From contig CAYUUR010000003.1 of NCBI GenBank assembly GCA_964448075.1, positions 133,610-197,609 on the forward strand: DNA of 64,000 nucleotides, written 5' to 3'. The stretch is from an uncultured Candidatus Saccharibacteria bacterium (GTDB lineage Bacteria; Patescibacteriota; Saccharimonadia; Saccharimonadales; CAYUUR01). The notes beneath the pieces are model-generated. The model saw nothing but the letters and a program-made list of their open reading frames with translations. It made no database searches and was not told where the DNA came from. Numbering within the stretch: position 1 is the first letter of the stretch; every line of letters starts with the position of its first letter. The position numbers were made by a program, and so were the translations under genes. Shown here piece after piece: positions 37,591 to 63,601 of the stretch.

Positions 37591-37728
37591 AAGAATACTT
37601 TAACACAACTACGTGCATATGTCAACGATGTGTATTGTGCTATTGCCTTAGTGGTACGAAAGGAAAACATTACAAGCAGAAGATAAGTTTGACACTCAGT
37701 TTTAGTGAATTTAGTTCGAACAAAGTTT

Positions 37729-38703
37729 CTAGCTATCGGTTTTTGATTTATAGTAGTCAGCTATTTCATGCAACCCTTGCTTCAGTCCAAATTCGGGTTT
37801 CCAATTGAGTGTCTTCCGCAGCTTTTTGTCTGTTGTATTGAGATATAGTATTTCGCCTGCCCGTATATCACGAGTATTCCAGTTTATTTTACCTTTCCAT
37901 CCCATAACCTCAGCGATTGTACTAACAAGATTTTCGACGCTAAGACCATTATCTGGTCCAGTATTAAATACTTGTCCTGCAACTAAATCAACAGGTGCCT
38001 CAATAATTTTTTGATAAATACTAGTCAGATCCTGGATGTATATATAGCTTCTCACAGGCTTTGAATTACCTAGATTGATGACATTTGATTCCAACATCTG
38101 CTTAATGACGGTTTCAGTAATAAAATAGGTATCATTTTTGCGTCCAAATACATTTGAGTTACGTATAATCACTGCAGGAAAGTTGTAGATCTGGTGCATG
38201 CAAAGTAAGTATTTTTCAGCAGCAAATTTTGCAACTGCATATGGCGAGGTCGGGTTTGGACTAACTCCTTCGTCGAATGCCACCTCCCCTGCTCGTCCGT
38301 AAACCTCCATAGTTGAAGCAAAGATGAACTTCTTAAGATTTGGTACTTCTCGTCTGCAAGCCTCGGCTACGTTTATGGTTCCGACGTAGTTAACCTCACT
38401 AACCTCTTGCGGATGCTCGAACGAATACGAGACTGGGGTTATGGCCGCCAGATGTATTACAATATCAGGCTGGAATGCACGTAACGTCCAAGAAATTGTT
38501 GACATGTCACGTAGATCTACAAAAAAAAGCTCTATTCTTCCTAGTACTGGTTTTATGTTTTGAGCTACGCGCGGCGAATATCTAAGATAGCCGCCAACGC
38601 TGTAACCAGTATCGGCTAGTTGTTGCGCAATTTCTGATCCAATAAATCCTGACACCCCAGTTATTAGTACTTTTGTTGTGTGGCCATGTCCAAAATTTTT
38701 CAT
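37729..38703 (-). CDS. NAD-dependent epimerase/dehydratase (extended SDR)
   Basis: VLITGVSGFIGSEI (Rossmann GxxGxxG), YAVAKFAAE (YxxxK). Confidence 0.85.
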   Translation of the reverse strand: MKNFGHGHTTKVLITGVSGFIGSEIAQQLADTGYSVGGYLRYSPRVAQNIKPVLGRIELFFVDLRDMSTISWTLRAFQPDIVIHLAAITPVSYSFEHPQEVSEVNYVGTINVAEACRREVPNLKKFIFASTMEVYGRAGEVAFDEGVSPNPTSPYAVAKFAAEKYLLCMHQIYNFPAVIIRNSNVFGRKNDTYFITETVIKQMLESNVINLGNSKPVRSYIYIQDLTSIYQKIIEAPVDLVAGQVFNTGPDNGLSVENLVSTIAEVMGWKGKINWNTRDIRAGEILYLNTTDKKLRKTLNWKPEFGLKQGLHEIADYYKSKTDS

Positions 38704-38891
38704 CGTAACCCCTTTGTTAGCACTGATTCTACATAATGTTATGCATCCTGACCAGTATTCAGAACGATAACTTTGTATTATTCAATTGATTGTTAGAGGA
38801 AGTACTTAGCAATTTACTACTGCTAATTATATAGCTGAGTTATGCCTTCAGAATGATAAAAAGTCACAGTCTCAATGCTACAGACTCTTCC

Positions 38892-39069
38892 TGCCTTTTG
38901 GGGTCGGGTAATGCACAGCTGCACTCGTTCTCGGAGTAAACTCCTGCGAGCGATCTTGATGACCGAACCGACAACCTGCGCTAGCTAAAGCTATCGCGTT
39001 GTCTTGTTCGGACCCAGCCTAGAAAGAATAAAAAAAGACCCTCAGTTGAGGATCTTGTTTCATTGGCTC
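38892..39069 (-). repeat. E-type mini-element plus terminator plus minimal tRNA-Asn-like remnant
   Basis: tRNA-sense block GGTTCGGTCATCAAGATCGCTCGCAGGAGTTTACTCCGAGAACGAGTGCAGCTGTGCATTACCC has 12 differences in 64 nt versus the tRNA-Ser-linked copy. It ends CCGACCCCAAAAGGCA (compare tRNA-Asn CCGACCCCGGGAGCCA). Terminator at 39036-39056; tggctc at 39064-39069. Confidence 0.55.
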
Positions 39070-39125
39070 ACAACGATAGAGCAAGTCATAACTGCAATCA
39101 AACAAGATTTTGGTACAATTTGATC

Positions 39126-39665
39126 ATGAAGATTACATATTTCGTGCATTCAATCACTGAAGATAACGAAAAGAGTCTTGCAACTGGATGGATGCAGGGC
39201 AAATTGTCTGAAGAAGGAATAAAGCGTGCCCTGGCATTAAGACCAGACTTATCGAGTCGAGACTTTGATGCAGTATTTTGTTCAGATCTAGAGCGTGCGT
39301 TACAAAGCGCGGAGTTGTTTTTTGATAAAAAGTTCCCAGTATTTATCGATTGGAGACTGCGAGAATGCAATTACGGTGAGTATGATGGTAGGCCAGCAGC
39401 AGAATTCAAAAAGGATCGCGAGCAAGAATATATTCAAAAGAGCTACCCATCAGGAGAAAGCTACACGGATGTTGAAGCCCGCATAAAGAGCTTCTTTTCT
39501 GACTTAAGCCGATTCGATTACGACCATATTGCGATTGTCGCCCACCAGGCACCACAACTTGCCTTAGATGTTCTACTCAAAGATCAGTCCTGGGAAGAAG
39601 CTATTGCAAATGATTGGCGCAAGTCAAAATCTTGGCAACCTGGCTGGGAATATTCCGTAGACTAG
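39126..39665 (+). CDS. histidine phosphatase superfamily (PGM-like) protein, atypical N-terminal motif
   Basis: Start moved to MKITYFVHS. SDLERALQSAE, ECNYGEYDG and VAHQAP blocks. The usual RHG is VHS here. Confidence 0.6.
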   Translation: MKITYFVHSITEDNEKSLATGWMQGKLSEEGIKRALALRPDLSSRDFDAVFCSDLERALQSAELFFDKKFPVFIDWRLRECNYGEYDGRPAAEFKKDREQEYIQKSYPSGESYTDVEARIKSFFSDLSRFDYDHIAIVAHQAPQLALDVLLKDQSWEEAIANDWRKSKSWQPGWEYSVD

Positions 39666-39866
39666 ATTATTGGTTTCAACTCTACTCTGGGTATACAAAA
39701 AGTCAGAACCATATCTACAGTTCTGACTTTATCTACTTTGGCTTGGCTCCGCATACAGGTCACGAACTCTTTAACAGATGAAAATGCTACAAATGAGACA
39801 CTGTAGAAGCTGTAGCAAGAGCGTCTCATCCATAGGCGGAACTAATGTTTTGCAGCTATAAGTACA

Positions 39867-41570
39867 CTAGAAAACTGCATCCTCCTTAAGGATATAGTTC
39901 AGCCAGGCATCGGCAATTACATTCTGACTTGATTGGGAATTTACTAAAATTTTGTTCGTTTTTGTCTTCTCTTTCTTTTCCCTAAAAAGTCTGCCTATGC
40001 TAGCAACAAGCTCTCCTTGTACCAAGTAGATATATCTATCGACTGCTGCGGAATATAGGAAGTTGATGGCGTTACCGTCGTTCATCAGATGAAAATAGTG
40101 GCCACGCTTTGAGTAGCGTGTAATATCGTCGGTAATTTTATCTTTAGCGTATTCGCTATCGACAAATCGTAAGTCAAACTCATCGTCGGATGATGTGACT
40201 GATGCCAGGAATGCACCCCTTTTTAGATCTCTTAACTTCAAGATATCTATCGCCTGAGAGCCTGTTGCGCAGAAGACTATGTCGCTGCTTTTAAGGAGAT
40301 GGTCGATAGGAACGACTTTCGCTCCATCGCATGAGGCCTGTACGGCACGCATTGGATCAATCTCGCACACATACGACTGAATGCCGCGCTGCTGTAAATA
40401 TTGGAAGATGCCTCTGCCTATTTTTCCGTAGCCGATAATGCCGCAGCTTTTGTACGTGATAAGTGTGTTCAGGTTACGCAGCACAGTTTCTGCGGCATGG
40501 GCAACTCCATTACCAACAAGCTGATCCTCAAAGCTTTTAAGAGGGCTACGAGCAACAGATATAACGCGGAGATTTTCTGGCATATTCCTTTCATATTTCT
40601 GATGACCATTTTCCGTATCCTCTACAACGCCCAGTAGCTTTTTACCGAGACGCTTCTTGATTAGGTCGATGTTCTCGCTGAAGTAGCCACCGATATCTAC
40701 CATGCAGATATCGTCGTATTTCGCTAGTAAATCCGTCAGCTCTTTCGGGTCACTTGTTATACTTTCTCGGGTAAACTGATCAAGTATAGGTACGGCCATT
40801 TCTTTTAGGGTAGCTAGCGTCTTCTGATTGATTGAATTTGGCTTTGGAATTATACCAATAAGGTTGAAGTTTTCTTGCAAGCTAAGGATATAGCTTTCAG
40901 AACTTGGAATGATATGGGATACTGCAACCACTGATATGTCTTTGCTATGACTCTCCGTGATTGACTTGAAGAAGTCACGAGGGCTTGGCTCAAGCAGCCC
41001 CTCAATTCTGTCAACGACTGTTGTAAAGTGAGGGTCGTCAACAAAAATATCCCAATCAATCCACTGGAAGCCGTTTGATTCGTTAAGGTCGATATTTACA
41101 TCAGACTTTTCGGTAACATATAGATAACGAAAGTCGTGGTGGTAGTGTCCTGGCTCTTTTTTGCGAGGATTCTCGGGAATATAATGGCTGTCGATATGGA
41201 ATGGTACGTCAGGATAGCGACGTAGAACAGGCTGAAGTAAGAGATCCTCACTTTTTAAGCCTGTCTCTTCTTCTACTTCGCGCAGCGTAGCTTCAAGCGG
41301 AGAGTTATCGCTGTCGTCGATATGACCTCCTGGTTGAAGTAGCTTGCCAAGCGATTTATGTTGCAAAAGAAGCACCTGACGAGTGTGCTTATTAATAACA
41401 AAAGCGCTGGCAGTCACATGACCTACAAAGTTCTTGCGTGAAGTGATATCTTGGTCGCTCTGATCGAGTTGTTCCGCTAGTAGCTTAAGACTAGCGGCAT
41501 CGTTCGCATGAGTGGTGATGTACTTTTCGTATAGTTCTTTAATCTGCATTAATTTTCTCATGTCACCCAT
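39867..41570 (-). CDS. fusion protein: N-terminal NUDIX hydrolase plus C-terminal adenosylhomocysteinase-like (SAHH fold) domain
   Basis: NUDIX box GGHIDDSDNSPLEATLREVEEETGL. SAHH-like VEDTENGHQKY (compare EETTTGV), GIIGYGKIGRG...CEIDPMRAVQASCDGAKV...DIVFCATGS (compare GYGDVGKG...EIDPICALQAAMEG...TTTGN). Confidence 0.65.
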   Translation of the reverse strand: MGDMRKLMQIKELYEKYITTHANDAASLKLLAEQLDQSDQDITSRKNFVGHVTASAFVINKHTRQVLLLQHKSLGKLLQPGGHIDDSDNSPLEATLREVEEETGLKSEDLLLQPVLRRYPDVPFHIDSHYIPENPRKKEPGHYHHDFRYLYVTEKSDVNIDLNESNGFQWIDWDIFVDDPHFTTVVDRIEGLLEPSPRDFFKSITESHSKDISVVAVSHIIPSSESYILSLQENFNLIGIIPKPNSINQKTLATLKEMAVPILDQFTRESITSDPKELTDLLAKYDDICMVDIGGYFSENIDLIKKRLGKKLLGVVEDTENGHQKYERNMPENLRVISVARSPLKSFEDQLVGNGVAHAAETVLRNLNTLITYKSCGIIGYGKIGRGIFQYLQQRGIQSYVCEIDPMRAVQASCDGAKVVPIDHLLKSSDIVFCATGSQAIDILKLRDLKRGAFLASVTSSDDEFDLRFVDSEYAKDKITDDITRYSKRGHYFHLMNDGNAINFLYSAAVDRYIYLVQGELVASIGRLFREKKEKTKTNKILVNSQSSQNVIADAWLNYILKEDAVF

Positions 41571-41640
41571 TATAAACTAGACTACCTCTATAAACTATGC
41601 TATTATAGCATTAAATCATACATTTATCAACGGGAAGACC

Positions 41641-42237
41641 ATGAAACTACCAGAAATTATTGGAATTAGCGGAACAAATGGTGCAGGTAAAGATACGCTT
41701 GCCGCTCTTCGTCGTGAACGGGAGGGAGCCGAGCACGTCAGCCTTAGTGATGTATCGCGCAAAGAATTAACCGCCCTAGGTATCCCTCTTGAGCGAGAAA
41801 ACCTTATGGCCCTTAGCAAGCAGTGGCGAGAAGAAAGTGGTGACTACGGTGTACTAGCAACGCGCACAATACAAAGATACCTCGGAGATAAGGCGGTGAG
41901 TACGACGATTAACGGTTTGTCGATTGTAAGCGTACGCCACCCAGATGAGGCAACGCGTATTAAGGAGGCTGACGGGAAAATCTTCTGGGTCGATGCTCGA
42001 CCCGAGTTGCGGTACGAACGTGTTCGTACCGGGGGTAGAAATAGAATTGATGATCAGAAAACCTTTGAAGAATTTATTGACGAAGAACAACGAGAGATAA
42101 ATCCACTCAATCCTAATCCGGCGAGTGTTAACTTGGGTGCTGTATCTCGTATGGCAGACGTGAGGATAGAAAATAATTTCACCGATGAGTCAGGCTACAT
42201 TGACTTCTTGCTCGATAAATACTTTCCCGATTGGTAG
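41641..42237 (+). CDS. P-loop NMP/dNMP-kinase-like protein
   Basis: IIGISGTNGAGKDT Walker A of the GxGKD(T) type. Paralogous in pattern to 58530-59099. Confidence 0.55.
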   Translation: MKLPEIIGISGTNGAGKDTLAALRREREGAEHVSLSDVSRKELTALGIPLERENLMALSKQWREESGDYGVLATRTIQRYLGDKAVSTTINGLSIVSVRHPDEATRIKEADGKIFWVDARPELRYERVRTGGRNRIDDQKTFEEFIDEEQREINPLNPNPASVNLGAVSRMADVRIENNFTDESGYIDFLLDKYFPDW

Positions 42238-42238
42238 T

Positions 42239-43453
42239 CTACGCGGCTCGACACACGGTTATAAAACGTTCAGCAACCGCTTTAATATCGTCATCACTTG
42301 AGTGAATATTGATACCAAATGCCGACCCAATACCGCCGTCAACAACACCTACGCTGATGTTGATAGTGCGGTTTAAAATGCCATCCGTTTTAGGCAGATC
42401 GCCAGCGTTGACAAACCTCCCGTGAGCAGACCAGTCATCCGTAGGCGTCTTGTGTCCGCTGATTTGCTCCATGTTGCCATAGACATGCCAGCCAGATTCC
42501 GACAAAGGGATGCTGCCAAGTTGCTTACTGACTCGATCCGCCATTTCTTTGGTATCAAAAACTATAGTCAGCATCGTCGCGCACTCACCGTCAATATCGT
42601 TAATTTTTCTGAAAGTAACACCAGGAATGTCTGCTTCCTTGATGAGATTTTTAAGTTGACGCTTCTTGTCGTGCAAAACCTGAAGCATTCCGTCTAGTTT
42701 CCTCACCTGAGCCAATGCAACTGCGCCAGATAACTCGTTCATCTGAAAATTGAGACCTACGATACTCCTGTTGCCAACTTCCTTGCCGCTTCTATTAGGC
42801 TTGTGGCCTTGGTCGCTAATGGCAAATACCCTCTCGTATAGAGCGTTGTCGTTAGTGACGATTATACCTCCACTGCCAGCAGCGATATTCTTGTGCTGAT
42901 TCAGAGAGAACGCACCTATATCACCAAAAGTGCCGAGCTTCTTTCCCTTAAACGATCCTCCGGCGGCTTGGCAGCCGTCCTCGATCACAAAGAGATTGTA
43001 TTTCTTGGCAATACGCATAATAGCATCCATATCGCAGGGATTACCGAGCATGTGGACGGGCATAATCGCCTTTGTTTTCTCTGTAATTTTCTCCTCCAAA
43101 TCAATTGGATCCATCGTAAGTGATTCATCAATTTCAACCAATACAGGTGTAGCACGAGAATAAATGATTGATCCAATCGATGCCACAAACGTATATCCAG
43201 GGACTAAGACTTCGTCGCCCTCCTGTAGGCCAAGAGCAAGTAGCGATATAAATAGTGAGCTCGTACCAGAGCTATTTGCTATAGCATGTTGTGCGCCAAC
43301 ATAACCGGCAAACTCTTGCTCTAAAGAGTAGACTTTATGTTTAAACCTTAGATCATCGAGGCTACCGTAACGAGACAAGTGTCCGCTTTCGAGGACGTCC
43401 ATTACTTCTTTCCGCTCTTCGTCGCCAAAGCTATATGCACCTGGGCCCGCCAT
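42239..43453 (-). CDS. DegT/DnrJ/EryC1/StrS-family PLP-dependent aminotransferase
   Basis: EFAGYVGAQHAIANSSGTSSL, VIEDGCQAAGG, FSLNQHKNI (PLP lysine context). Confidence 0.85.
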   Translation of the reverse strand: MAGPGAYSFGDEERKEVMDVLESGHLSRYGSLDDLRFKHKVYSLEQEFAGYVGAQHAIANSSGTSSLFISLLALGLQEGDEVLVPGYTFVASIGSIIYSRATPVLVEIDESLTMDPIDLEEKITEKTKAIMPVHMLGNPCDMDAIMRIAKKYNLFVIEDGCQAAGGSFKGKKLGTFGDIGAFSLNQHKNIAAGSGGIIVTNDNALYERVFAISDQGHKPNRSGKEVGNRSIVGLNFQMNELSGAVALAQVRKLDGMLQVLHDKKRQLKNLIKEADIPGVTFRKINDIDGECATMLTIVFDTKEMADRVSKQLGSIPLSESGWHVYGNMEQISGHKTPTDDWSAHGRFVNAGDLPKTDGILNRTINISVGVVDGGIGSAFGINIHSSDDDIKAVAERFITVCRAA

Positions 43454-43568
43454 AGTTCTCCTTCTCTGTCAGAGGGTTGTATATAGTACAATGATATGCT
43501 ATAATAGCAAAAATATCAAGGTTCCATAGCAAAAAGTATCAGCGTTAACAGCACGGAGGTCGGGTAAG

Positions 43569-44573
43569 ATGAGTAAAGTTCGTCTTGGGTTAATTGGATA
43601 TGGTCGTCTTGGATCAATCCACGCGAAGAATATTAACGACTCAGAACATGCTGAACTTTTTGCCGTGTGCGATACGAATCCTGAAGCGTTAGATAGGGTT
43701 AACGAGCAGTACGATACACTTACTTTCGACAACTTGGATGATTTCTTGAATCAGCCAATTGACGGCGTTGTTATTGCATCAAATACACATCTCCATATTG
43801 AACATATAAAATCAGTAGCTAATGCAGGTAAACACATATTTACCGAGAAGCCAATTGGCTTAACGATGCAAGAGACCGACGGTGCACTGCAATCTGTCGT
43901 GGACGCTGGCGTTAAGTTTCAAATTGGCTTCCAGCGCCGCTGGGATCCTCGCTATCTGGCGGCGAAAGAATCTATTGCCAACGGAAGCATTGGCAAGCCT
44001 GTCCTTTTTAAGGCTTACGGTCGTGATCCGAATGCATCGAACGCAGCAAACTGGGGCTTGGATAAGAACGGTGGTCTTTTCCTAAATGCAGCCATTCATG
44101 ATTACGATGCGGCTAGATTTTTACTAGACCAAGAGGCCTTGAAAATCTCTGCAACAGGTGCCACCCTAGTTCACACCGGCCTGAGAGAATATAACGATAT
44201 TGACACTTGCTCTACCACATTATTAATGACTAATGACACTATGGCGATCACCGAATGGAGCCGCTATGCTTCGTATGGATACGATGTGGCCGCTGAGGTT
44301 ATCGGAACAGACGGTATCATACAGATTGGCCGCGGGAAAGATGAGGGTGTAACTCTCAGACTGCGAAACGAGCAGGCTCCTGGAGTGATTGATATTTTTC
44401 GTGACTCATACGCGGCAGAGATAGATGCCTTTGCGCTTGCTATCAAGAACGGCACGCAACCGACGCCAGGCGTTGAAGACGCTCGAATCGCACTCCATCT
44501 TGCTCTGTTGGCTCGACAATCTTTCGAGGAGCGCAAGTTATTGAATGTTACCAATTTAGCACAACTTACTTAA
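43569..44573 (+). CDS. Gfo/Idh/MocA-family NAD(P) oxidoreductase
   Basis: VRLGLIGYGRLGSIHAKN Rossmann start, FTEKP motif, 334 aa. Confidence 0.85.
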   Translation: MSKVRLGLIGYGRLGSIHAKNINDSEHAELFAVCDTNPEALDRVNEQYDTLTFDNLDDFLNQPIDGVVIASNTHLHIEHIKSVANAGKHIFTEKPIGLTMQETDGALQSVVDAGVKFQIGFQRRWDPRYLAAKESIANGSIGKPVLFKAYGRDPNASNAANWGLDKNGGLFLNAAIHDYDAARFLLDQEALKISATGATLVHTGLREYNDIDTCSTTLLMTNDTMAITEWSRYASYGYDVAAEVIGTDGIIQIGRGKDEGVTLRLRNEQAPGVIDIFRDSYAAEIDAFALAIKNGTQPTPGVEDARIALHLALLARQSFEERKLLNVTNLAQLT

Positions 44574-45193
44574 TGACTATGAGCACCGAACTATATCTGA
44601 TTCGCCACGGAGAGGCAGCAAATAATGTTCGCCATAATTATATTGCTGGTCGTAGCAATCATTTTCCATTAACAGAAAGGGGCGTCGCCCAATCACGCAG
44701 TCTAGGCACAGCCTTATTGAAGGCCGAGGTACTCCCTGATGTGGTGTATGCATCGCCGGCAATACGAGCCGTTCAGACTGCTCATCATGCACTCAATGCA
44801 ATGATGATTGATATTCCAGTCAATAAAGATGACCGCCTGCAAGAACAGGATGTTGGCACATGGGTTGGACGTGTAGCCACTGAAGTGTTTACTGATGAGC
44901 AGGTTGCCGAGATTGACAGGCTAGGAAAAGATTTTAGATCTCCTAGCGGCGAGTCGTTTAACGACGTAGGCGATCGAATGTATGAATGGGCTAACTCGAT
45001 ATCGGATAGTGGGCGTGTGCTTGCTTTCACGCATGGTGGCTCTATTCGTTGCCTTGCGTCAAAAGTTGAATCCTGGTCACACCCACAAACATATCAAACG
45101 CGTCCTGGCAATACATCGATAAGTCTGTTTACTCGTAGTGAGGATGACTGGGTGCTAGAGTACATAGGCAAGAATATAGAGGAGATTAACTAA
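44573..45193 (+). CDS. histidine phosphatase family protein
   Basis: LYLIRHGEAANN (RHG), SPAIRAVQTA, FTHGGSIR. Start overlaps the previous stop. Confidence 0.8.
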   Translation: MTMSTELYLIRHGEAANNVRHNYIAGRSNHFPLTERGVAQSRSLGTALLKAEVLPDVVYASPAIRAVQTAHHALNAMMIDIPVNKDDRLQEQDVGTWVGRVATEVFTDEQVAEIDRLGKDFRSPSGESFNDVGDRMYEWANSISDSGRVLAFTHGGSIRCLASKVESWSHPQTYQTRPGNTSISLFTRSEDDWVLEYIGKNIEEIN

Positions 45194-47258: not shown

Positions 47259-47259
47259 T

Positions 47260-55371: not shown

Positions 55372-55382
55372 GTTCGAAGTAT

Positions 55383-55399: not shown

Positions 55400-55419
55400 T
55401 ATGTAAAGGGACAGGTCTA

Positions 55420-55580: not shown

Positions 55581-55584
55581 TATT

Positions 55585-55660: not shown

Positions 55661-55761
55661 ACCGCCGATTTTTATGCTCATTTTACCTTAGCTTACAACC
55701 GGCTATCAAAATATTTACTTCCTAAATAGACTCGGCAGAGGCGTTACGACTTTGTAGGATG

Positions 55762-56220
55762 TTAAATTTCTACAAAGTCATCTTCAGTTAATTGGCCAAT
55801 AAATCGTTTTGCCCAGATCACTGCTGTTTCGATTGTGTCAATTTTTGGACCAAATTCTTTTAGATCATCGAGCGCAACCCATTGATATTCGCTGTATTCA
55901 TCGTTGAGCTCTATGTCACCCTCAACGTATTTGCAAATATGATGCGGTAGTATCATCGATGAGCCGTCTTTTTTCTGGAAGTATGCGTTAAAAACTGGCA
56001 TAGCAGCAATTCTAATTTTTGCGCTTGCTCCAATCTCTTCAGTTTTCTCTCTCCGGATGCCATTAATAATGCCGCCATCGCTCGTTTCAATTTTACCTCC
56101 TATGAAGGAAAAGGTTCCATTGTAGTCCTGCTCTCCTTTACGCTTGGCAAGCAAGATCTTATCTAGAGTTTCATTGAAAACAACTAATTTTGGACAATAC
56201 TGGAAATACAATTTGTTCAT
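55762..56220 (-). CDS. NUDIX hydrolase
   Basis: GGKIETSDGGIINGIRREKTEEIG (NUDIX box variant); 152 aa. Confidence 0.75.
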   Translation of the reverse strand: MNKLYFQYCPKLVVFNETLDKILLAKRKGEQDYNGTFSFIGGKIETSDGGIINGIRREKTEEIGASAKIRIAAMPVFNAYFQKKDGSSMILPHHICKYVEGDIELNDEYSEYQWVALDDLKEFGPKIDTIETAVIWAKRFIGQLTEDDFVEI

Positions 56221-56780
56221 TCGGCGGATCCAATGATTCTATCGAACCGTGCTTTAACTGCCAGTTGGTCTACTTTTGAGATGGTTGCCTTAAATTCATT
56301 GCCACTTGGAGCTGTCCAAGATATTGTTTCGCCTGCCTTCGCGCCGTACAAATTTTTTGCCATTGGAGAGCTAGGAGTAACAATAGTCACATTATCTTCA
56401 GATGACATTCCTGGAATATGATGAGTGGCTAGGTCAAAAATTTCAGTATATCCATCATCTTCAACTGTATGAACCCTTGAGCCATATGTCGCAGTCTGCT
56501 CATTTGGATCAGGGTAGGGTATCTCGCCCCTATCCTCGATTTGGCGAGATAGTTTAATCATTGTTTGTAAGTGTTTTTCTTTCATGTGCGCTTCAACGGC
56601 TGCTATCTGCGATGCTGGGTCGTCAAACGCCCAATCACCACCACTTGAAGCCACGGCTTCCCCGTATTCCTTATTGGCATCACTTAATGCCTCAGTCGCA
56701 CGATGCACGGCGTTTAATACGAAGTGCACTTCATGCGGTAAAAAGCCTACTTCATTTTCGTTACTTAAAATCTCTCCCAT
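56217..56780 (-). CDS. GreA/GreB C-terminal-domain protein (Rnk-like)
   Basis: YGSRVHTVEDDG...VTIVTPSSPMAKNLYGAKAGETISWTAPSGNEFKATISKV matches the GreA C-terminal domain pattern. Confidence 0.5.
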   Translation of the reverse strand: MGEILSNENEVGFLPHEVHFVLNAVHRATEALSDANKEYGEAVASSGGDWAFDDPASQIAAVEAHMKEKHLQTMIKLSRQIEDRGEIPYPDPNEQTATYGSRVHTVEDDGYTEIFDLATHHIPGMSSEDNVTIVTPSSPMAKNLYGAKAGETISWTAPSGNEFKATISKVDQLAVKARFDRIIGSAE

Positions 56781-56797
56781 TAGTGTATATTATAACC

Positions 56798-58591
56798 TTA
56801 TCTCTTGCTTAGTGCAACAGGTTGAATACAATGACTCCCATCGACGTATATAGTAATACCTGAGGCGCCAGCATTGTAGGCCTCGCGGTATATTTCAGCT
56901 ACATCCTTGGTGCTGGAATCTGAAGGCATATTTATGGTTTTGGAAATGGCTTCATCGGTATATCTTTGTAAGGATGAGACCATGGCTAAATGATCTGAAG
57001 GATCTATGCCCTGAGCACAAGCGAGATATTCTTTAAATTCATCAAGGTCAGCATATTGTGTTAATTCATCTAGCCCCACTGCTTTTCCGGTAATTCTCAT
57101 GATATGTCTAGCCATTTCATGTCTGACGTTAGTATCTATTCTTTCAAGCGAGAAATGCGGCTCAACACCCGTTGACGCTCCATACACCAATGCGCTTCTG
57201 CCGGTTGGAGGCAGGGCAACGGTAGTTGTATTCCTTAGTAGTCTAGTTTCTTTAATTACGCGCCCCAGCCTTCTCCAGTCCAGGCAATCAACACTGTCGG
57301 TACTTTCATGATTACCATACATTGAACTAAGATAGTCATTGCTATCATAATATCGATTGCCAATTGGTTGCATCATTGATAGTGCTGGACCACGCTGTTT
57401 AGCAAGTTCTATCGATGCTAACTTAGAAGTATAGTTTATAAATGAAAGTATATTGGTAATCAGTTTTCTGGCTTCTTCAGACTCATAGCTAAGTCCAGCT
57501 ATACTAATCGCATCAGCGACTCCACTAAGCCCTATGCCGATCTTTCGTTTCTGTTGCATGACATGAGCACTCAGTGGGGTTAAGTAGCGGTCAATGCTTA
57601 TCGACAATGCATTATCAAGTGCACGCGTAAGAACCTCTGTGGTTTCTTTCAGGTCGTCATAGTTTATTTCTGGACCTTCCCCTCGATTCTTGATGAATTT
57701 ACATGCATTTATATATCCAAATTGGCATGATTCTCCTTCAACGAGCCCAACTTCTGCACAGGGTGCAGTAGTTTTATAGCTACCAATGCCTGGTATAGGA
57801 TTTCGTGCATTCATTCTATCAAGAAAAATCAGACCGGGATCCGCGCACCTTGTTGCTGCTTCACAGATTCCTTCAAATATTTCAGCCGCGCCTGCTCGCG
57901 AACCATCCAAGAGCTCAATTTCACCGTTCATATCTAGATGAGCAAAGAATCTATCGTCAAGATCAACCGATATATTAAACTTCCATACCTTAGACCCGTC
58001 GGCACTGTCAGTTTTGCATCTGATAAAATCCATTATTTTTGGGTGATAAACACTTAGAACCGCCATATTACCCACAGGACGATTTTCTTCTTCTCTTTTT
58101 GAGCCTTCCAAAGCAAAATCATTAAGCATTTTCAGCATTGAGACTGGGTCTTTCAAAGAGTTGAGGTCAAATCCCGTGCCCATGCCTTGCTGGTGCAGGG
58201 TATCAATCTCATTTCTCAACATATCAGGATCGCATTGTGTAAGGTCGGAGGTAGGCATAGTACACGCACCAAGTGGCCTGTCAAAATACCTGCCAGCATT
58301 AGTCATGATTGTTGTACTCATAATAATTCGGCCGTCGTCCATTCTCTCACCCAATTTTTGAGCGAATTGTTGAGTTTCGGGGCCAGTTGAAAAACTTGAC
58401 TCCTCATGGGCTAGCGTAGATACAACTCGCTCAACCATATCTGATCCAGACTCAAGCTCATTAATAATTTTGCCTTTCCTCAGGAGGTTAAGAGCTTCAC
58501 TGTTTGGCGTAAAGCTAGACTCGTACACTTTAAGCTCCCCGGATTTCACTATCAAAAACTCGCCGCATTTGCTGATCCCAATATTCAGCAT
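56798..58591 (-). CDS. nrdJ: class II (adenosylcobalamin-dependent) ribonucleotide reductase, short form
   Basis: TNAGR, MAVLSVYHPKIMDFI, TTAPCAEVGL...ESCQFGYIN, TVALPPTGR. The start is uncertain: ATG 58591 overlaps the upstream gene by 62 nt; the alternative GTG at 58549 overlaps by 20 nt. Confidence 0.8.
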   Translation of the reverse strand: MLNIGISKCGEFLIVKSGELKVYESSFTPNSEALNLLRKGKIINELESGSDMVERVVSTLAHEESSFSTGPETQQFAQKLGERMDDGRIIMSTTIMTNAGRYFDRPLGACTMPTSDLTQCDPDMLRNEIDTLHQQGMGTGFDLNSLKDPVSMLKMLNDFALEGSKREEENRPVGNMAVLSVYHPKIMDFIRCKTDSADGSKVWKFNISVDLDDRFFAHLDMNGEIELLDGSRAGAAEIFEGICEAATRCADPGLIFLDRMNARNPIPGIGSYKTTAPCAEVGLVEGESCQFGYINACKFIKNRGEGPEINYDDLKETTEVLTRALDNALSISIDRYLTPLSAHVMQQKRKIGIGLSGVADAISIAGLSYESEEARKLITNILSFINYTSKLASIELAKQRGPALSMMQPIGNRYYDSNDYLSSMYGNHESTDSVDCLDWRRLGRVIKETRLLRNTTTVALPPTGRSALVYGASTGVEPHFSLERIDTNVRHEMARHIMRITGKAVGLDELTQYADLDEFKEYLACAQGIDPSDHLAMVSSLQRYTDEAISKTINMPSDSSTKDVAEIYREAYNAGASGITIYVDGSHCIQPVALSKR

Positions 58592-59099
58592 TTACTATCG
58601 GTACGCTACCGTCAACTCGAATGTCGGCCATCGTGATTACATTCGCTAGCCGTTGATCAGTGCTACTCGCACGCATGTCTTCATCATCTAATCTGTGGAA
58701 ATTTTTGGCATCTTGTTCGTCTGAAGATCGCGAACGACCCGTTGCTCTACTGATCCTGATATTATCTGACGTATCAACATGCACAATTACACTCTTCCGT
58801 AAACCACGAAGGGTAATTACTTCTTCAACAACATATAAGCCACTTACTATCACTAGTTCATCATCAGGTATATGATCAATGCTTTGTCTAAGTAAGTAGT
58901 CGTTCCCGTTCTCTTGTCTTAATTTTGCAGCAGTTTTGCGAGTGAGGTCTCTTGTAGGCTCACCAAGGTTATTCTCTTGAATATAACGCCTAGCGATATC
59001 AGATGTTGTCACCAACGAGCCACCTTTTCTGTCTTGGATAAACTTACCAAAACTATCCTTACCGCTAGCTAATCCACCAACTAAGCCTATCGCTTCCAT
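58530..59099 (-). CDS. P-loop NMP/dNMP-kinase-like protein
   Basis: Start moved to MEAIGLVGGLASGKDS (GxxGKD P-loop). Same architecture as 41641-42237. Confidence 0.55.
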   Translation of the reverse strand: MEAIGLVGGLASGKDSFGKFIQDRKGGSLVTTSDIARRYIQENNLGEPTRDLTRKTAAKLRQENGNDYLLRQSIDHIPDDELVIVSGLYVVEEVITLRGLRKSVIVHVDTSDNIRISRATGRSRSSDEQDAKNFHRLDDEDMRASSTDQRLANVITMADIRVDGSVPIVNAEYWDQQMRRVFDSEIRGA

Positions 59100-59165
59100 A
59101 TACGTATAATAATGTATACACATATATGTGTCAATATAAGTACGGTGTGCTATAATTACATCCGT

Positions 59166-59738
59166 ATGAAGGTGTATTTTTCTACCTCTGCAAGTTCAAT
59201 TGACAAGAATATTGATGACTGCAGAATTATTATCTCAGCAATTAAAAAACTTGGTCATGAACTTGTCCGAGATTGGGTTGAGCGTGCCTATACACAAAAA
59301 ATCAAAGGCCACCATTATTCTGAAAATGAGTCAAAGAAAATCTATCAAGACAACCTGAGGGCACTGAAGGAATCAGACGTAATCATTCTTGAGGCTACCA
59401 GTCATACATTTAACACGGGTTATCTTGCCAGTCTAGCAATAAGCCTACAAAAACCATTGTTAATATTGACGAAAGATTCCACGCAGATGACATCCTTTCT
59501 CATGGGTGAAACTACAACCCTGAAATACGTTGAATCTTATTCTGACGCTTCTGATCTCAAATCAATAATTTCTTCATTTCTTGCTGAGAACTCTAACAAT
59601 ACAAAAGATGTTAGGTTCAATATGTATATCGGACGAAATATCAGCAACTTCTTAAAACGAGAAGCAAAAACTAAAGGCAAATCAAAAGCGCAAATTGTTA
59701 GAGAAATACTAGAAACGCATATAGCAAATAAGTCATAA
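59166..59738 (+). CDS. nucleoside 2-deoxyribosyltransferase-like protein with C-terminal ribbon-helix-helix-like tail
   Basis: Start moved to MKVYFSTS. Flavodoxin-like NDT pattern (KVYF..., SDVIILEAT), tail KSKAQIVREILETHI. Assignment tentative. Confidence 0.4.
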   Translation: MKVYFSTSASSIDKNIDDCRIIISAIKKLGHELVRDWVERAYTQKIKGHHYSENESKKIYQDNLRALKESDVIILEATSHTFNTGYLASLAISLQKPLLILTKDSTQMTSFLMGETTTLKYVESYSDASDLKSIISSFLAENSNNTKDVRFNMYIGRNISNFLKREAKTKGKSKAQIVREILETHIANKS

Positions 59739-59775: not shown

Positions 59776-59860
59776 GCGACCGACCATGGAACCCGGTCTA
59801 CCTCTGTTAATGCTTGGCTCTCCCTAGTGGACGTACTTCGTTACTTTGAAGTCGAAAGCA
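59776..59860 (-). repeat. diverged copy of the tRNA-Asn 3' end plus downstream spacer
   Basis: ccggtctacctctgtt (59793-59808) is identical to 63501-63516, followed by tgcttggctc...; the remainder is degenerate. Confidence 0.6.
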
Positions 59861-59866
59861 CGCAGT

Positions 59867-60250
59867 CTATTCAACTCCAGTTATCTGACCCTTTTCGTTT
59901 GTTTGGTAGACTCCCTTAGACAGGTCTACGAGTGTTAGAGTGTTGCCGAATGGGTCTTGGATTACAGACATTTTGCCTACGGGAATGTCTTCCGGTGGTA
60001 CGAGTATCTTTCCTCCGGCTTCCTGGATTACCTTAACTGCATCCTGAACAGAATCGACGAGGATGTCTGTTTCCGGGTCTAATGTAGTACTCATAACGAG
60101 CTCGCAGTCGCCTAGTTTTACGGCTGCCTGATCGTCTTTTCGCCAACGCAGTTCATGCCCAAGCTTTTCACAATAAAACGCGAGTCCTTCGTCGATGCTT
60201 GGAACTCTCACCAAAACGGCATCTACTTTATTGAATAATGGCATGCTCAT
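59867..60250 (-). CDS. VOC/glyoxalase-family protein
   Basis: 127 aa; LVRVPSIDEGLAFYCEKLGHEL...VIQDPFGNTLTLVD. Confidence 0.7.
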   Translation of the reverse strand: MSMPLFNKVDAVLVRVPSIDEGLAFYCEKLGHELRWRKDDQAAVKLGDCELVMSTTLDPETDILVDSVQDAVKVIQEAGGKILVPPEDIPVGKMSVIQDPFGNTLTLVDLSKGVYQTNEKGQITGVE

Positions 60251-60306: not shown

Positions 60307-60368
60307 CAGAGGCCGATGACCTCTGTTAATTAAGTTCGAAACTTGGCTCCGGGGAAAGGATTCGACTC
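60307..60368 (-). repeat. terminator hairpin plus degenerate tRNA-Asn-like 3' remnant
   Basis: cagagg-ccgatga-cctctg (60307-60325), then ...cttggctccggggaaaggattcgactc (tggctc at 60344). An inverted 10-mer gagccagacc lies at 60501-60510. Confidence 0.5.
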
Positions 60369-60588: not shown

Positions 60589-61182
60589 TCAGCGAAGCGC
60601 GCGTCGTTTCAACCATCTTACAGACGCGTATATTACACACAGGCCAGCTAGTACCAATGCGCCAATTATTACAGTGTCTCTTGGGTTTACTTCTCTAGAC
60701 CCGCTAACGCTCGCTAGAATATTACTCAGTAGTACTAATAGGAGAACGCTGATTATGGAGCCTAAAATAATAAGCATTACTGCTGCTGTTGTGCTATTCG
60801 CATTGTTATAAATCGACATATCTACCGGTACGCCAAGATCGTGCAATTGTTTTGCCCAACTGATGAACCCTGATGATTTGAGATCATACTCACGGATGGC
60901 TGGATTGCTCCCGGTAGTAGCGCCGAGAAATGCTCCTGTATTGTCGCCCTTGACTGATTTAATGACATTACGATCAAATGATACTTTGTATTTTTTGCTG
61001 GCAGCTATGATTTTTAATGCCTGGCCTCGCTGCTTGACTTTGTTGATCTCTTTGATAGCTAAGTTAAAAACGGGTCCTTCACTGGTTAATAATTCGATAC
61101 TCTCTCCGCTTAGCCTGAGCGTTCCAAGTGTATATTTGGCGCCAAGTCCCTGCGTGAAAGCGACGGTTTGGGGTTCTGGCAT
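60589..61182 (-). CDS. hypothetical membrane protein (N-terminal soluble PH/GRAM-like part, two C-terminal TM helices)
   Basis: 197-aa ORF; hydrophobic C-terminal half. Confidence 0.5.
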   Translation of the reverse strand: MPEPQTVAFTQGLGAKYTLGTLRLSGESIELLTSEGPVFNLAIKEINKVKQRGQALKIIAASKKYKVSFDRNVIKSVKGDNTGAFLGATTGSNPAIREYDLKSSGFISWAKQLHDLGVPVDMSIYNNANSTTAAVMLIILGSIISVLLLVLLSNILASVSGSREVNPRDTVIIGALVLAGLCVIYASVRWLKRRALR

Positions 61183-61242
61183 GTGTATTTTCCTTTGCTA
61201 CTAGTTTATAACCATACTAACACTTCAGGGTAGGGCAGTCTA

Positions 61243-61440
61243 CTTGCCCCCTGTGCATGTGTAACGGCACGCTGTCGAATCGTAGTTCTGTGCGCAGCCT
61301 GATTGACCGAACCTTCGACTTTCGCCAGCGAGCTGGCGAATCGAAGAACCGACCCATCGCCGAAGCCATATAAAAACAGCCCTCAAATGAGGACTGTTTT
61401 TATATGGCTCCGGGAACTGGACTCGAACTTTTGACACATA
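61243..61440 (-). repeat. E-type element (apical core deleted), terminator, and degenerate tRNA-Asn-like 3' remnant
   Basis: tRNA-sense order: ...GTTCGAGTCCAGTTCCCGGAGCCA (tggctc at 61405), terminator aaaaacagccctca-aat-gaggactgttttt (61372-61400), then GGGTCGGTTCTTCGATTCGCCAGC..GCTGGCGAAAGTCGAAGGTTCGGTCAATCAGGCTGCGCAC. Confidence 0.5.
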
Positions 61441-61495: not shown

Positions 61496-62422
61496 TCAAG
61501 CTAATTGTCGGTCATTCAAAGTAGTTATGAATCTTGACTTGAATGCCTCCTCCGGTATAGACGTAACGCGTTCGGCGTTTGGCTTTTTGCTGTCTGGCAC
61601 AGGCCTTTTGTCAATAATCGTCATGCCTCGTGTATAGTCCCCCTTCGTCTCAAGTTCGATATTTATCTCTTGTGTTGAACATTTTTTAGGCTCAAGAAGA
61701 TAGTAGGCTGCCAGCACGTCGTACATCAATGCCCCTTCTGACGCCATGTCCTTCTTGAGGCTCTCTATGTATGGACGATTCATCGCAATCAGAGCCTTTC
61801 GCAGAGAAGAATCGTTTATCTGCTCGAAATCCGTGAGCTTGAGCTGAATGTGATTGCACGCATCAAGCGGCACGAATACCTTTTTAACAGGCAAGTCTAG
61901 CACAATTGATGCTGCCTCAGGATCGACAAACATATTGAATTCAGCGACACGATTCTTATTCCCTGCCACCTCAAAGGCACCACCCATTATCACAATCTGA
62001 TGTACTCTCTTCATTGTCACGGGATCACGCATGATTGCCCTGGCAATATTTGTTAACGGTCCAAGGGTGAGTAGTGTCACTGGCTCTGAAGATTGCTTTA
62101 CGGTGTCTACAATTTTTTCAGCGGCATTATTAGTCAACGCGTCTTCAGTATTTTTTAAATCCACTCCATCTAGGCCGCTTTCTCCGTGCACAACTGCCTG
62201 TATAAGTTTACGCTCCAAGGGTTTTGCTGCTCCGGAATATAGTGGTATGTCTTTTCTCCCGAGAAGCCTCAGTATATAAGCGGCATTCCGGGTTGTATTT
62301 TCAATAGTTGAGTTTCCCGCCACAGTAGTAATGGCGGCAACATCTATGCGCGGGCTCTTAAGCAACAACATTAACGCCATTGCATCGTCTTGTCCGGGGT
62401 CGGTATCAATGATTACTTTCAT
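61496..62422 (-). CDS. nucleoside hydrolase (IUNH family)
   Basis: KVIIDTDPGQDDAMAL (DxDxxxDD), 308 aa. Confidence 0.88.
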   Translation of the reverse strand: MKVIIDTDPGQDDAMALMLLLKSPRIDVAAITTVAGNSTIENTTRNAAYILRLLGRKDIPLYSGAAKPLERKLIQAVVHGESGLDGVDLKNTEDALTNNAAEKIVDTVKQSSEPVTLLTLGPLTNIARAIMRDPVTMKRVHQIVIMGGAFEVAGNKNRVAEFNMFVDPEAASIVLDLPVKKVFVPLDACNHIQLKLTDFEQINDSSLRKALIAMNRPYIESLKKDMASEGALMYDVLAAYYLLEPKKCSTQEINIELETKGDYTRGMTIIDKRPVPDSKKPNAERVTSIPEEAFKSRFITTLNDRQLA

Positions 62423-63084
62423 ACTAGGTTCCTCTCTTTGATTATTTCTAAAATTCCTTTGAGCGATGTTGCTGAAAAGTCAGCATCGAGTCGCTCCGGT
62501 CCAATTAGTGCCGTCTGCATGCCGATCGATTTCGCCGGAATAATGTCCGAATGGTTTTGATCACCAATTGACAAACAAGCTTCCGGCCTAGTCTCCATTT
62601 TTGCAGCGACATGTCGGAAGATTGCTGGGTTTGGTTTACGCAAATCAGGTTCGCCGGTATAGACTTGGCTGCCGAACACATCGCTTACCTCCAGATATTC
62701 GAGGACAAGGTCAACCCATACTTTGGGAGCTGCGCTAAGGAGCGCTGCTCTACCTGCGAATGGTGTAAGCATGTTTACTAAGTTGGGGTTTGCGCCTATG
62801 TAATTCTCTGGTGGTTGACTCCAGGTTGCATCAAAGAGGTCATAGCGATCGATGCCATAATCCTTTTCGAGCCCAAGACTCAGTTCACCTGAGTATCTTT
62901 CCATAATCTGATTAAAAATTTCTGAAGCTTCGTCTTGGTTGATGCCAAGCTGCTCACCAATAAATGTTCTCGTATTAGACATCAGGTCGGCACAAAAACG
63001 TGATGCACCAAAACTGGTCCCTGGAATTCCGTCCAGATCATATAATGTACCGTCAAGGTCAAAAATAAACTTTGTTTCCGTCAT
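62419..63084 (-). CDS. HAD-superfamily phosphatase (pyrimidine 5'-nucleotidase-like)
   Basis: FIFDLDGTLY motif I, SAAPK, GDQNHSDI motif IV. 4-nt overlap with the nucleoside hydrolase gene. Confidence 0.75.
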   Translation of the reverse strand: MTETKFIFDLDGTLYDLDGIPGTSFGASRFCADLMSNTRTFIGEQLGINQDEASEIFNQIMERYSGELSLGLEKDYGIDRYDLFDATWSQPPENYIGANPNLVNMLTPFAGRAALLSAAPKVWVDLVLEYLEVSDVFGSQVYTGEPDLRKPNPAIFRHVAAKMETRPEACLSIGDQNHSDIIPAKSIGMQTALIGPERLDADFSATSLKGILEIIKERNLV

Positions 63085-63100
63085 GATTTTCTCCTCAATT

Positions 63101-63128
63101 AAAAAAGCCTCCTGAAAAAGGAGGCCTG
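63101..63128 (-). terminator. terminator hairpin immediately upstream of the HAD gene RBS
   Basis: Minus strand: AGGCCTCC-TTTTTC-AGGAGGC-TTTTTT followed by GAGGAGAAAATC ATG. Confidence 0.55.
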
Positions 63129-63280
63129 AAAGATTAAATTTCTAAATAACTAGCTAACAAGCCTCCGAATGTAGGTGGCGATGCCAAGTCGTGTTAGAAA
63201 TTAGCTTAAACATAATTTTTACTATAGCATTTAATTGATAATATGCAAGAATAGATAACAAACTCCGTGATGATTATGAT

Positions 63281-63526
63281 GGGAAGGTCACCGAACCCGG
63301 TCGCAATCTTCCCTGCTTGCTCCTCATATAGAGAACCGGTAAGGTTCGAACCAAATCATCAGAGGTGATTTGGTTCATCTCTCCCCTCTTTTCTGGTTCG
63401 AATGCTTACATCACAATACTGTATTTTAGGGAAACCGGTCTCGAACTAGTTAACAGATAAGAAGTAGTTTGACAGAAATAGAAAAACCGGTCACAGGAAA
63501 CCGGTCTACCTCTGTTGTGCTTGGTC
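63281..63526 (-). repeat. F-type element and spacer/terminator downstream of tRNA-Asn (tRNA-fragment-rich)
   Basis: Contains several GGTTCGAA-type T-loop fragments in both orientations, an 11-bp hairpin gaaccaaatca-tcagag-gtgatttggttc, the block shared with 55420-55580, and the ACCGGT..ACCGGT-TTTT terminator at about 63485-63510. Confidence 0.5.
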
Positions 63527-63601
63527 TGGCTCCCGGGGTCGGATTCGAACCGACAACCTCGAAGTTAACAGCTTCTTGCTCCACCATTGAGCTACCCGGG
63601 A
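63527..63601 (-). tRNA. tRNA-Asn(GTT), CCA encoded
   Basis: Reverse complement TCCCGGGTAGCTCAATGGTGGAGCAAGAAGCTGTTAACTTCGAGGTTGTCGGTTCGAATCCGACCCCGGGAGCCA; anticodon loop CTGTTAA. Confidence 0.9.

Follow-up and report, generated by a model that had tools for sequence, protein, structure and literature searches.

A tandem cassette array at the 3' terminus of a tRNA-Asn gene in Saccharibacteria, probably built by a CcrB-like serine recombinase

Saccharibacteria have tiny genomes, and gene acquisition in these bacteria is little understood. The question of how it proceeds is raised by a stretch of 64,000 nucleotides (nt) of contig CAYUUR010000003.1 (assembly GCA_964448075.1), called the window throughout, where a functional tRNA-Asn gene is followed by a row of gene cassettes separated by sequences resembling the 3' end of the same tRNA. 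By which route did these cassettes arrive, and which enzyme placed them? An earlier note on this DNA had proposed a tandem array of acquired cassettes behind tRNA-Asn, with copies of the tRNA 3' end at the junctions. The comparison with related contigs and loci, designated here by L-numbers, supports such an array, and it points with fair probability to a serine recombinase as its builder. The host group, Candidatus Saccharibacteria, was assigned by the naming of the homologues of an encoded ribonucleotide reductase (RNR).

Junctions behind the tRNA gene

The array begins at 63,526 and reaches at least to 39,064 or, judged by composition, to about 34.5 kb. GC content is 0.489 in positions 1-34400 and 0.436 in 34400-63601, with the best single change point at about 34.5 kb; the drop predicted by the earlier note is therefore present, but not at the position of about 37.6 kb at which it had been placed. 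Tetranucleotide usage, the other composition check that had been proposed, also shifts across the region (correlation 0.42-0.69, versus 0.91-0.97). In both measures the region shows the atypical composition expected of a tandem island array.

The tRNA gene, the junctions and the non-coding units associated with them are the following, where E is the value obtained with the profile described below.

63527-63601, minus strand: functional tRNA-Asn(GTT) (ARAGORN; Rfam tRNA, 64.8 bits), its 3' terminus GGGAGCCA being the head of the array; E 7e-12.
63286-63526, minus strand: type-1 unit, read in tRNA sense, with post-CCA GACCAAGCAC-AACAGAGGTA, box1 hairpin/terminator at 63484-63507, an interior of about 180 nt with T-arm-like GGTTCGA motifs, and box2 at 63286-63302.
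61405-61438, minus strand: remnant made of T loop, 3' strand of the T stem, acceptor and GCCA, followed by a terminator hairpin, with an inverted repeat recorded at the site; E 1e-5.
About 61200-61400: a second kind of non-coding element, after remnant 61405.
60344-60365, minus strand: remnant TCGAATCC...CCCCGGAGCCA, followed by a terminator at 60327-60305; E 1.7e-3.
59782-59820, minus strand: junction reduced to GAGCCA with its post-CCA flank and a box1/box2 hybrid left by collapse of the unit, whose interior of about 200 nt is deleted; E 0.3 at 59815, for the GAGCCA-plus-flank part only.
55626-55703, minus strand: remnant with a pseudo-tRNA-like lead-in of about 80 nt, its T arm GTTGG/CCGGT still pairing via G-U; E 1.5e-11.
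55400-55625, minus strand: type-2 unit, of the recombinase-linked kind, with GACCAAGCAGAGAA..., box1 at 55588-55604, a hairpin at 55502-55525, GGAGCAAGCAGG, and box2 at 55414-55430.
39744-39770, minus strand: remnant AGAGTTCGTGACCTGTATGCGGAGCCA with a terminator behind it; L003 has it too (14697-14723), and L042 +2888 belongs to its type; E 0.018.
39064-39102, minus strand: 39-nt conserved junction with GTGAGCCA at its end and a terminator behind it; GAGCCA is its only tRNA-like part.

The six remnant strings quoted in the earlier note all lie exactly where it had located them, and so do the flank identities that it reported, the 16-mer CCGGTCTACCTCTGTT occurring at 59793 and 63501 and the 13-mer CTTGGTCTGGCTC at 55619 and 63520. 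Compared with the 30-mer of the real tRNA-Asn, the remnants at 55626, 60344 and 61405 are identical at 23, 20 and 19 of the 30 positions, while the best unrelated TGGCTC-seeded 30-mers on both strands reach 15-17; the tRNA parts of 59815 (13/30) and 39064 (12/30) are at chance level. A profile hidden Markov model, built from 70 tRNA-end-like sites of other genomes without any sequence of the window, was also searched against the window and did not detect 39064. The remnants that exceed chance by both profile and 30-mer identity are therefore 55626, 61405 and 60344, whereas 59815 is matched in its flank only and 39064 not at all. The profile also returned the remnant at 39744, which the earlier note had not listed; the match is borderline, comparable to those on two other real tRNAs, and the remnant has a counterpart in L003. 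Same-orientation direct repeats of the 3' part of an intact tRNA gene hence bound the units.

Terminator-like hairpins after the CCA, another feature reported earlier, were detected by a terminator scan at 63507-63484 and 60327-60305 and were also seen by eye after 61405, 39744 and 39064. Rfam searches of the window and of the region, at gathering thresholds and at E<=1, matched only the three real tRNAs of the window; remnants and units matched none of the known RNA families.

Although not tRNA-like, the element at 39064, which had been listed as a minimal remnant, appears to be a real conserved junction, because L003 holds an equivalent with different cargo beside it: the two are 92% identical (L003 15393-15431), both end in GAGCCA, and both flanks are unrelated.

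L003 is the contig of the closest RNR (94% amino acid identity). Its order is tRNA-Asn, seven genes unrelated to those of the first three cassettes of the window, a remnant with a full unit, a five-gene RNR block, a remnant and two other genes; its well-preserved remnant has a 40-nt flank identical to that following its own tRNA. The RNR block is flanked by remnants in both genomes and is 96% identical between the window and L003/L004 over 4175 nt, up to the CCA of the next remnant. The tRNA and its downstream unit, in contrast, are only 79% identical between the window and L003, and the tRNA 5' flanks are unrelated; this difference points to a recent lateral transfer of the RNR cassette, which has no recombinase of its own. 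The block is kept in other contexts in L005-L009, at 78% and 71% RNR identity. Farther from the tRNA, the L003 equivalents of junctions 39744 and 39064 both end in GAGCCA and enclose a GNAT acetyltransferase gene, versus a histidine phosphatase gene in the window, and the DNA of L003 beyond the equivalent of 39064 is unrelated. The view that cassette content varies among relatives while the junctions are kept is upheld by these comparisons, as by those with L029-31, L016, L017 and others.

The position of the breakpoints was read from three independent comparisons. At the remnant that follows the NUDIX gene, the window and L003 are 96-100% identical until about 100 nt from the CCA; over the final 100 nt identity falls to 68-80%, and directly after GAGCCA it is at random level. 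The islands of L030 and L031 are 90-98% identical up to ...GGGTC/TGGCTCC, and the tRNAs that they adjoin differ in T stem and acceptor stem, each fitting its own 5' half. The same unit follows a remnant in L017 and the real tRNA in L026. Because of these breakpoints, the junction is placed at or next to the CCA terminus, which would leave the tRNA unsplit. The breakpoint falls in GAGCCA, and not inside the tRNA as in the islands of tyrosine integrases. A crossover in the T loop was considered and rejected, as identical islands adjoin different T arms and acceptors; a crossover inside the boxes was rejected because it cannot explain an intact box1 followed by a half-conserved box2.

These data also bear on the nature of the remnants, which had been described as decayed copies of tRNA-Asn. 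Many of them have a paired T stem of another sequence, CTGG/CCAG in most versus TCGG/CCGA in the tRNA-Asn of the window. Since the T stems are intact but different, and since the breakpoints lie at the CCA end and not inside the tRNA, the remnants are best read as element-borne mimics of a tRNA end rather than as displaced pieces of the resident tRNA. Several of them reach about 80 nt upstream as a pseudo-tRNA-like sequence (AAGCTAAGGTAAA..GAGC..AAAATCAGGTGGTAG-N6-TGGTTCGA..), found at 55626-55703 in the window, at 12890-12969 in L003, where 6/7 acceptor pairs are kept, and upstream of +4385 in L029. The lead-in changes more rapidly than the cassette beside it.

The CCA is followed, at the real tRNA and at many remnants, by a non-coding unit of 200-240 nt, which carries two GACCnnnTTCCnnGACC boxes. 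The unit is composed, in order, of GACCAAGCAC(T)AACAGAGGTA, of box1 GACCGGKTTCCTAGACCGGTC with a T run, forming a hairpin terminator, of an interior with T-arm-like GGTTCGAGTCC and GTTGGAAC motifs, and of box2 GACCGGGTTCCWTGACC. Most tRNA-Asn type-1 copies have 201-204 nt between the boxes, compared with 174-181 nt in the type-2 and tRNA-Met copies. The motif GRAAMYSGGTC was found 4 times against 0.21 expected. The type-2 unit of the window is 84-88% identical to recombinase-adjacent units in L017, L032, L034-36, L047 and L054, while the type-1 unit was aligned with 27 copies from other loci. RNAalifold gave no consensus fold for all 28 copies and, for 13 type-1 copies, 34 pairs, only 3 of them with a compensatory change; for these reasons the unit is treated as a DNA site or regulatory region and not as a demonstrated RNA. 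A hybrid of the left part of box1 and the right part of box2, without the interior of about 200 nt, occurs in the window at 59782-59798 and independently in L018 at 7281; at the position equivalent to the window junction, L003 has a full unit (8549-8820). The independent hybrids in two genomes imply that the boxes recombine, by a site-specific or a short-homology route.

The distribution of such arrays was evaluated by scanning one genome per species (GTDB) for the flank motif AACAGAGGTAGAYCGGNTTCC, and 18 loci were obtained, nearly all in Saccharibacteria metagenome-assembled genomes. The motif directly follows a real tRNA-Asn in 11 of them, and one to three further remnants per locus accompany the real tRNA-Asn. 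Seven loci (L011, L013, L014, L016, L017, L024, L026) contain two or three tRNA-end sites each, consisting of remnants only or of a real tRNA accompanied by additional remnants; in L010 and L027 the motif stands behind tRNA-Met and remnants of it. On its 5' side, the tRNA of the related arrays usually has SmpB as neighbour. A contig scan with the RNR protein had returned no relative, and the related loci derive instead from homologue look-ups and from the DNA-pattern scan; an exact-protein look-up of the nucleoside hydrolase gave only 2 near-identical contigs, uninformative on variation; the same locus is also contained in SRR16481186/7.

A serine recombinase linked to tRNA ends

About 60 main open reading frames (ORFs) of at least 100 amino acids were scanned across the window and assigned to Pfam families. 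The search revealed an intact large serine recombinase of 425 amino acids, encoded on the plus strand at 49983-51260 (49931-51260 with its lead), with Resolvase, Recombinase and Zn ribbon domains and the catalytic motif YARKSSE. Its best NCBIfam family is CcrB (E 1.2e-36), at 126 bits, far below the 900-bit equivalog cut-off; the best solved relative is the SPbeta integrase YokA, and relatives in phage and plasmid databases are found only at 32% identity or less. The earlier note had seen no tyrosine integrase, and no IntI-type or Phage_integrase tyrosine recombinase was in fact matched among the ORFs scanned, but the implied lack of any integrase does not stand, the serine recombinase having been overlooked.

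A metagenome scan yielded at least 553 relatives of this protein, and their linkage to tRNA genes was counted in the best 80 loci. Past the recombinase stop, a convergent tRNA gene is located within 5.5 kb in 34 of the 63 loci with at least 1 kb of flank on that side; on the start-codon side, where 63 loci offer 1 kb or more of sequence, no tRNA was found. The tRNA involved changes with the identity of the recombinase to that of the window: it is mostly Asn down to 68%, and Asn again in two loci at 54%, Met at 64-65%, and near 50% mostly Gln, with one Ser. The family is therefore tied specifically to the 3' end of its target.

The boxes sit between the recombinase stop and the tRNA. In the minimal layout (L038, L039, L047) the stop is followed by box2 at +56, box1 at +232 and the tRNA at +254; elsewhere the gap between stop and tRNA measures 0.85 to 4.9 kb, with an intermediate remnant in L032 and L060, and in the window it is 12.3 kb and includes three to four junctions. 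The recombinase gene of the window is part of a 5.7-kb unit with copper-resistance genes (49931-55651), which is 88.5-89% identical in L028-L031 and L041. In L030 and L031 this unit directly abuts a real tRNA-Asn gene; in L029 it abuts a remnant.

About 8-12 nt upstream of the ATG, all recombinase genes have CTAGACTT-N17-TAC(T/C)(G/T)T, found at 49931-49982 in the window, where the version is TACTGT, and at the same position in L028-L076. Such a motif suggests a promoter whose mRNA would be almost leaderless. Upstream of it the loci no longer resemble one another, and this limit often coincides with the stop codon of an unrelated neighbouring gene. It was considered as a possible end of the element and rejected, as the alignment upstream of the recombinase genes contains the motif only, and no tRNA-like repeat. 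In L027 (3819-6564), a tRNA-Met array whose recombinase is 65% identical in amino acids to that of the window, putative type I restriction-modification genes, hsdM- and hsdS-like, were read by eye on the start side.

How the array may have formed

We regard it as probable that this is a tandem array at the 3' terminus of tRNA-Asn, similar to the staphylococcal cassette chromosome (SCC) element SCCmec or to the ssrA islands of Dehalococcoides, and that it was built by the CcrB-like serine recombinase. The junctions would be copies or mimics of the last 16-30 nt of tRNA-Asn (T arm, 3' strand of the acceptor, GCCA), and the likely motor would be the recombinase encoded at 49,983-51,260, inserting circular elements at the extreme 3' end of the tRNA. 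T arm and acceptor would form the left half of attB and about 25 nt downstream its right half, with the crossover in or next to GAGCCA. One arm of an incoming element would be a tRNA-end mimic and the other would resemble the post-CCA sequence, so that the tRNA would stay intact and a usable site would be regenerated. Newer arrivals would stack next to the tRNA, displacing earlier ones outward. The recombinase-less cassettes, encoding HAD hydrolase and inosine-uridine nucleoside hydrolase (IUNH), a 197-aa (amino acid) protein, a VOC-family protein, and RNR, are bounded by the same repeats, as pseudo-SCC and cis-mobilisable elements are; like these, they may have been mobilised in trans, or they may be the trimmed remains of larger elements.

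Several points weigh against this account. There is one recombinase gene for at least six junctions. Canonical large serine recombinases join attP with attB only, and a repeated use of hybrid sites would need a regenerated site acting as attB. The recombinase unit, moreover, does not carry the repeat at both ends: the tRNA-proximal one is present at 55626, the next remnant in the window is at 39744, and no distal junction was detected; homology with L028-31 stops at the -35 edge (49931) of the recombinase promoter, without a tRNA-like repeat. In none of about 30 loci examined did the 8 kb on the start-codon side of the recombinase gene contain a remnant. The proposed mechanism leaves box1, box2 and the 200-nt interior unexplained. 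Finally, the window and L003 diverge by degrees within the 100 nt that precede the CCA, and this fits homologous exchange equally well.

Such an exchange would use the junction units of about 100-300 nt, each a mimic with its post-CCA unit, as portable homology arms, by which RecA would swap, add or remove cassettes after uptake of DNA from other Saccharibacteria, the recombinase moving its own unit only. Beside the gradual decay of identity, it would account for cargo that differs at every slot between kept junctions of the window and L003, a pattern of replacement and not of nested insertion, for units that are 75-90% identical across genomes, and for the independent collapse of box1 and box2 in the window and L018, which recombination between short direct repeats predicts. 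The hard breakpoints at the CCA end in all three comparisons are, however, sharper than expected from it, and it accounts neither for the origin of the duplicated tRNA ends nor for the strictly fixed orientation of the recombinase family and its choice of tRNA according to clade; as an explanation of the whole array it seems unlikely. Less likely still is a set of classical tRNA islands, inserted by tyrosine integrases that were later deleted or are encoded elsewhere, with the serine recombinase as unrelated cargo. Such islands are classically recognised by tandem direct repeats of a tRNA 3' end (Islander, PMC4383910), and deletion is rapid in reduced genomes; but besides the negative search of the window, a ranking of Pfam families in 140 ORFs of 16 related arrays has no integrase family, Phage_integrase included, in its top 25, near-identical islands adjoin differing T arms and acceptors, which sets the crossover at or after the CCA and not inside the tRNA, and it is the serine recombinase family that shows target-specific tRNA linkage.

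It could also be supposed that the region is native and vertically inherited, and that tRNA-like pieces and units are functional RNA signals, for instance for operon processing or as termination punctuation, instead of recombination scars. Each junction indeed has a terminator and sits between transcription units, the unit of about 240 nt is strongly conserved and of near-constant length within each type, and some T arms still pair. Yet the gene content between junctions is not syntenic among relatives, composition is atypical, Rfam gives no match, covariation is slight and no fold suits all copies, and the same units move with the recombinase onto different tRNAs, so that this explanation is highly improbable. 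Beyond the preferred reading of a tandem array built by the serine recombinase, a bolder version may be put forward tentatively, as a possibility that we still find doubtful: a resident cassette-capture platform, present in Saccharibacteria and in sister clades using tRNA-Met, -Gln and -Ser, in which one CcrB-like recombinase fixed at the far end of the array would repeatedly capture recombinase-less cassettes at the CCA terminus, at sites composed of a tRNA-3'-end mimic and the two-box unit. It would be a serine-recombinase analogue of the integron, through which lineages of these reduced, epibiotic bacteria would pass on modules as core-like as the class II RNR block.

Cargo, surroundings and known systems

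The genes carried between the junctions, assigned by Pfam, are the following.

61496-63084, minus strand: cassette 1, HAD hydrolase (62419-63084) and inosine-uridine nucleoside hydrolase (61496-62422).
60589-61182, minus strand: cassette 2, the single 197-aa protein, of no Pfam family.
59867-60250, minus strand: cassette 3, a single glyoxalase/VOC-family gene (PF00903).
55762-59738, minus strand: cassette 4, without recombinase; AAA_18 kinase, class II RNR, GreA-like protein and NUDIX, with a nucleoside deoxyribosyltransferase-like gene at 59112-59738 on the plus strand.
51295-55371, minus strand: copper-resistance cargo; CsoR-type repressor, copper P-type ATPase, 119-aa protein, DUF305 and 206-aa protein.
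39771-49930: about 10 kb of low-GC cargo (GC 0.449) without match in L003, with genes for sugar and nucleotide modification; NUDIX/AdoHcyase-like, AAA_18, DegT aminotransferase, GFO/IDH oxidoreductase, histidine phosphatase, two nucleotidyltransferases, EEP nuclease, NlpC/P60, 2'-5' RNA ligase-like, 189-aa protein and a DUF4352-like gene fragment.
39063-39665, plus strand: histidine phosphatase, between two conserved junctions.
34400-39063: low-GC tail (0.438); epimerase, ADP-ribosylglycohydrolase fragment, glyoxalase-like, Fur and PepSY.

ORF and Pfam scans agree with the earlier description of some units as single genes without recombinase, namely the 197-aa protein and the VOC gene. The statement that almost all genes lie on one strand is correct in part only, since the opposite strand carries the genes of 43569-48454 as well as that of the recombinase. 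The genes of cassette 1 are missing from the equivalent position of L003, where other genes are found. No recognisable junctions were found in the low-GC tail, which is probably an older part of the array; a homologue of its glyoxalase-like gene is located within the tRNA-Asn array of L026. In related arrays the cargo includes genes for TOTE primase-helicase, DUF6155, ParE, PIN, Zeta and Fic proteins, and glycosyltransferases.

Homologues of the cassette RNR (56798-58591), about 50% identical, are annotated from many Nocardia species and are interleaved with Saccharibacteria matches, which may reflect exchange between epibionts and actinobacterial hosts. In more distant relatives the RNR block stands beside other tRNAs: in L006 it is followed by a 538-aa serine recombinase (13286-14902; 38% identity to that of the window), whose gene overlaps at its 3' end a convergent tRNA-Leu(GAG) at 14811-14895; in L008 the block directly follows a tRNA-Leu pair (8317-8506).

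A second tRNA of the window, tRNA-Ser(GGA) at 23816-23907 on the minus strand, is accompanied by an exact 16-nt direct repeat of its 3' end (CCCTCTCTCTCCGCCA), located 127 nt downstream at 23673-23688 (2 matches versus 0.01 expected). The insert contains no gene, and is composed of a terminator and a GGGATTCGAGCC...GGTTCGGTCA motif resembling the element after remnant 61405, so that the whole (23673-23907) looks like a mini-cassette at a second tRNA. Downstream of the repeat, positions 17000-23600 form a mobile-looking segment with a local GC content of 0.55, which includes an IS1595-family transposase (17696-18589) and a Replic_Relax protein (19096-20004). A candidate pair resembling a diversity-generating retroelement is made up of a target protein with a Fib_succ_major/Lcl_C C-terminal domain (20295-21635) and a reverse transcriptase (21744-22835). 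In the higher-GC part, outside the array, a 353-aa protein (29024-30085) matches Pfam GP88 (phage 'Gene product 88', E 1.6e-28).

The locus looks like a general entry port behind tRNA-Asn for varied cargo: copper resistance, nucleotide salvage and RNR genes in the window, toxin-antitoxin and TOTE-type defence genes in related arrays. The port is tied to an uncharacterised and very widespread family of serine recombinases. If a recombinase acting on a tRNA-terminus site of roughly 50 bp is indeed at work, it would explain strain-level variation of gene content in the phylum, and it would provide a ready-made tool for site-specific integration in organisms that are hard to engineer.

Literature searches returned no description of this array system in Saccharibacteria, and the comparison was extended to known systems of other bacteria. 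Integrons share with the array small, mostly co-oriented cassettes without recombinase, structured ends resembling recombination sites, and a single recombinase gene at one end. Here, in contrast, the recombinase is a serine enzyme and not an IntI-type tyrosine one and lies far from the presumed entry site, tRNA-end mimics take the place of attC hairpins, and the cassettes have their own terminators and probably their own promoters. An integron proper was therefore rejected, no IntI-type enzyme and no attC-like architecture having been found in junctions made of tRNA-end mimics and terminators, and the integrase-less, integron-like capture suggested earlier gives way to a dedicated CcrB-like recombinase.

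SCC arrays include elements without recombinase that depend on a recombinase supplied in trans. Like SCCmec and pseudo-SCC elements, which use CcrAB or CcrC, the locus described here has CcrB as the best family of its recombinase, integration at the 3' end of a conserved housekeeping gene without its inactivation, and composite tandem arrays bounded by short repeats. It differs in that the recombinase is no CcrB orthologue (126 bits, cut-off 900), has 425 aa instead of about 540 and no CcrA partner, in that the target is a tRNA rather than rlmH, and in the host phylum, Patescibacteria.

The tycheposons of Prochlorococcus occupy island hot spots at tRNA genes and mostly carry tyrosine recombinases, a minority having large serine recombinases (Hackl et al., bioRxiv 10.1101/2020.12.28.424599). 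Common to both systems are streamlined genomes, partial tRNAs scattered by successive integrations that push older elements inward, and adaptive or defensive cargo. The window, unlike tycheposons, contains neither a tyrosine recombinase nor hallmark genes of a replication module; its junctions are at the tRNA terminus, and most of its cassettes consist of 1-5 genes without mobility genes.

The ssrA islands of Dehalococcoides contain a CcrB-like serine recombinase (DsiB), tandem direct repeats and recombinase-less 'cis-mobilisable' units (McMurdie et al. 2011, PMC3146451). Their target is the tmRNA gene, with the breakpoint in the T loop, whereas here it is tRNA-Asn (Met, Gln and Ser in sister clades), with the breakpoint at the CCA terminus. 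The six-gene integration module and the small DsiA/CcrA partner are absent here, the recombinase gene lies at the array end far from the tRNA and convergent to it, and a two-box unit of 200-240 nt is present. In both systems a reduced genome has tandem islands with adaptive cargo behind one small-RNA gene; the borders are short direct repeats copying the 3' end of that gene, the recombinase is a CcrB-like large serine enzyme, and some units, proposed to be cis-mobilisable, are without integration module. The principle, tandem islands built by a serine recombinase, is already known from SCCmec and from the Dehalococcoides ssrA islands.

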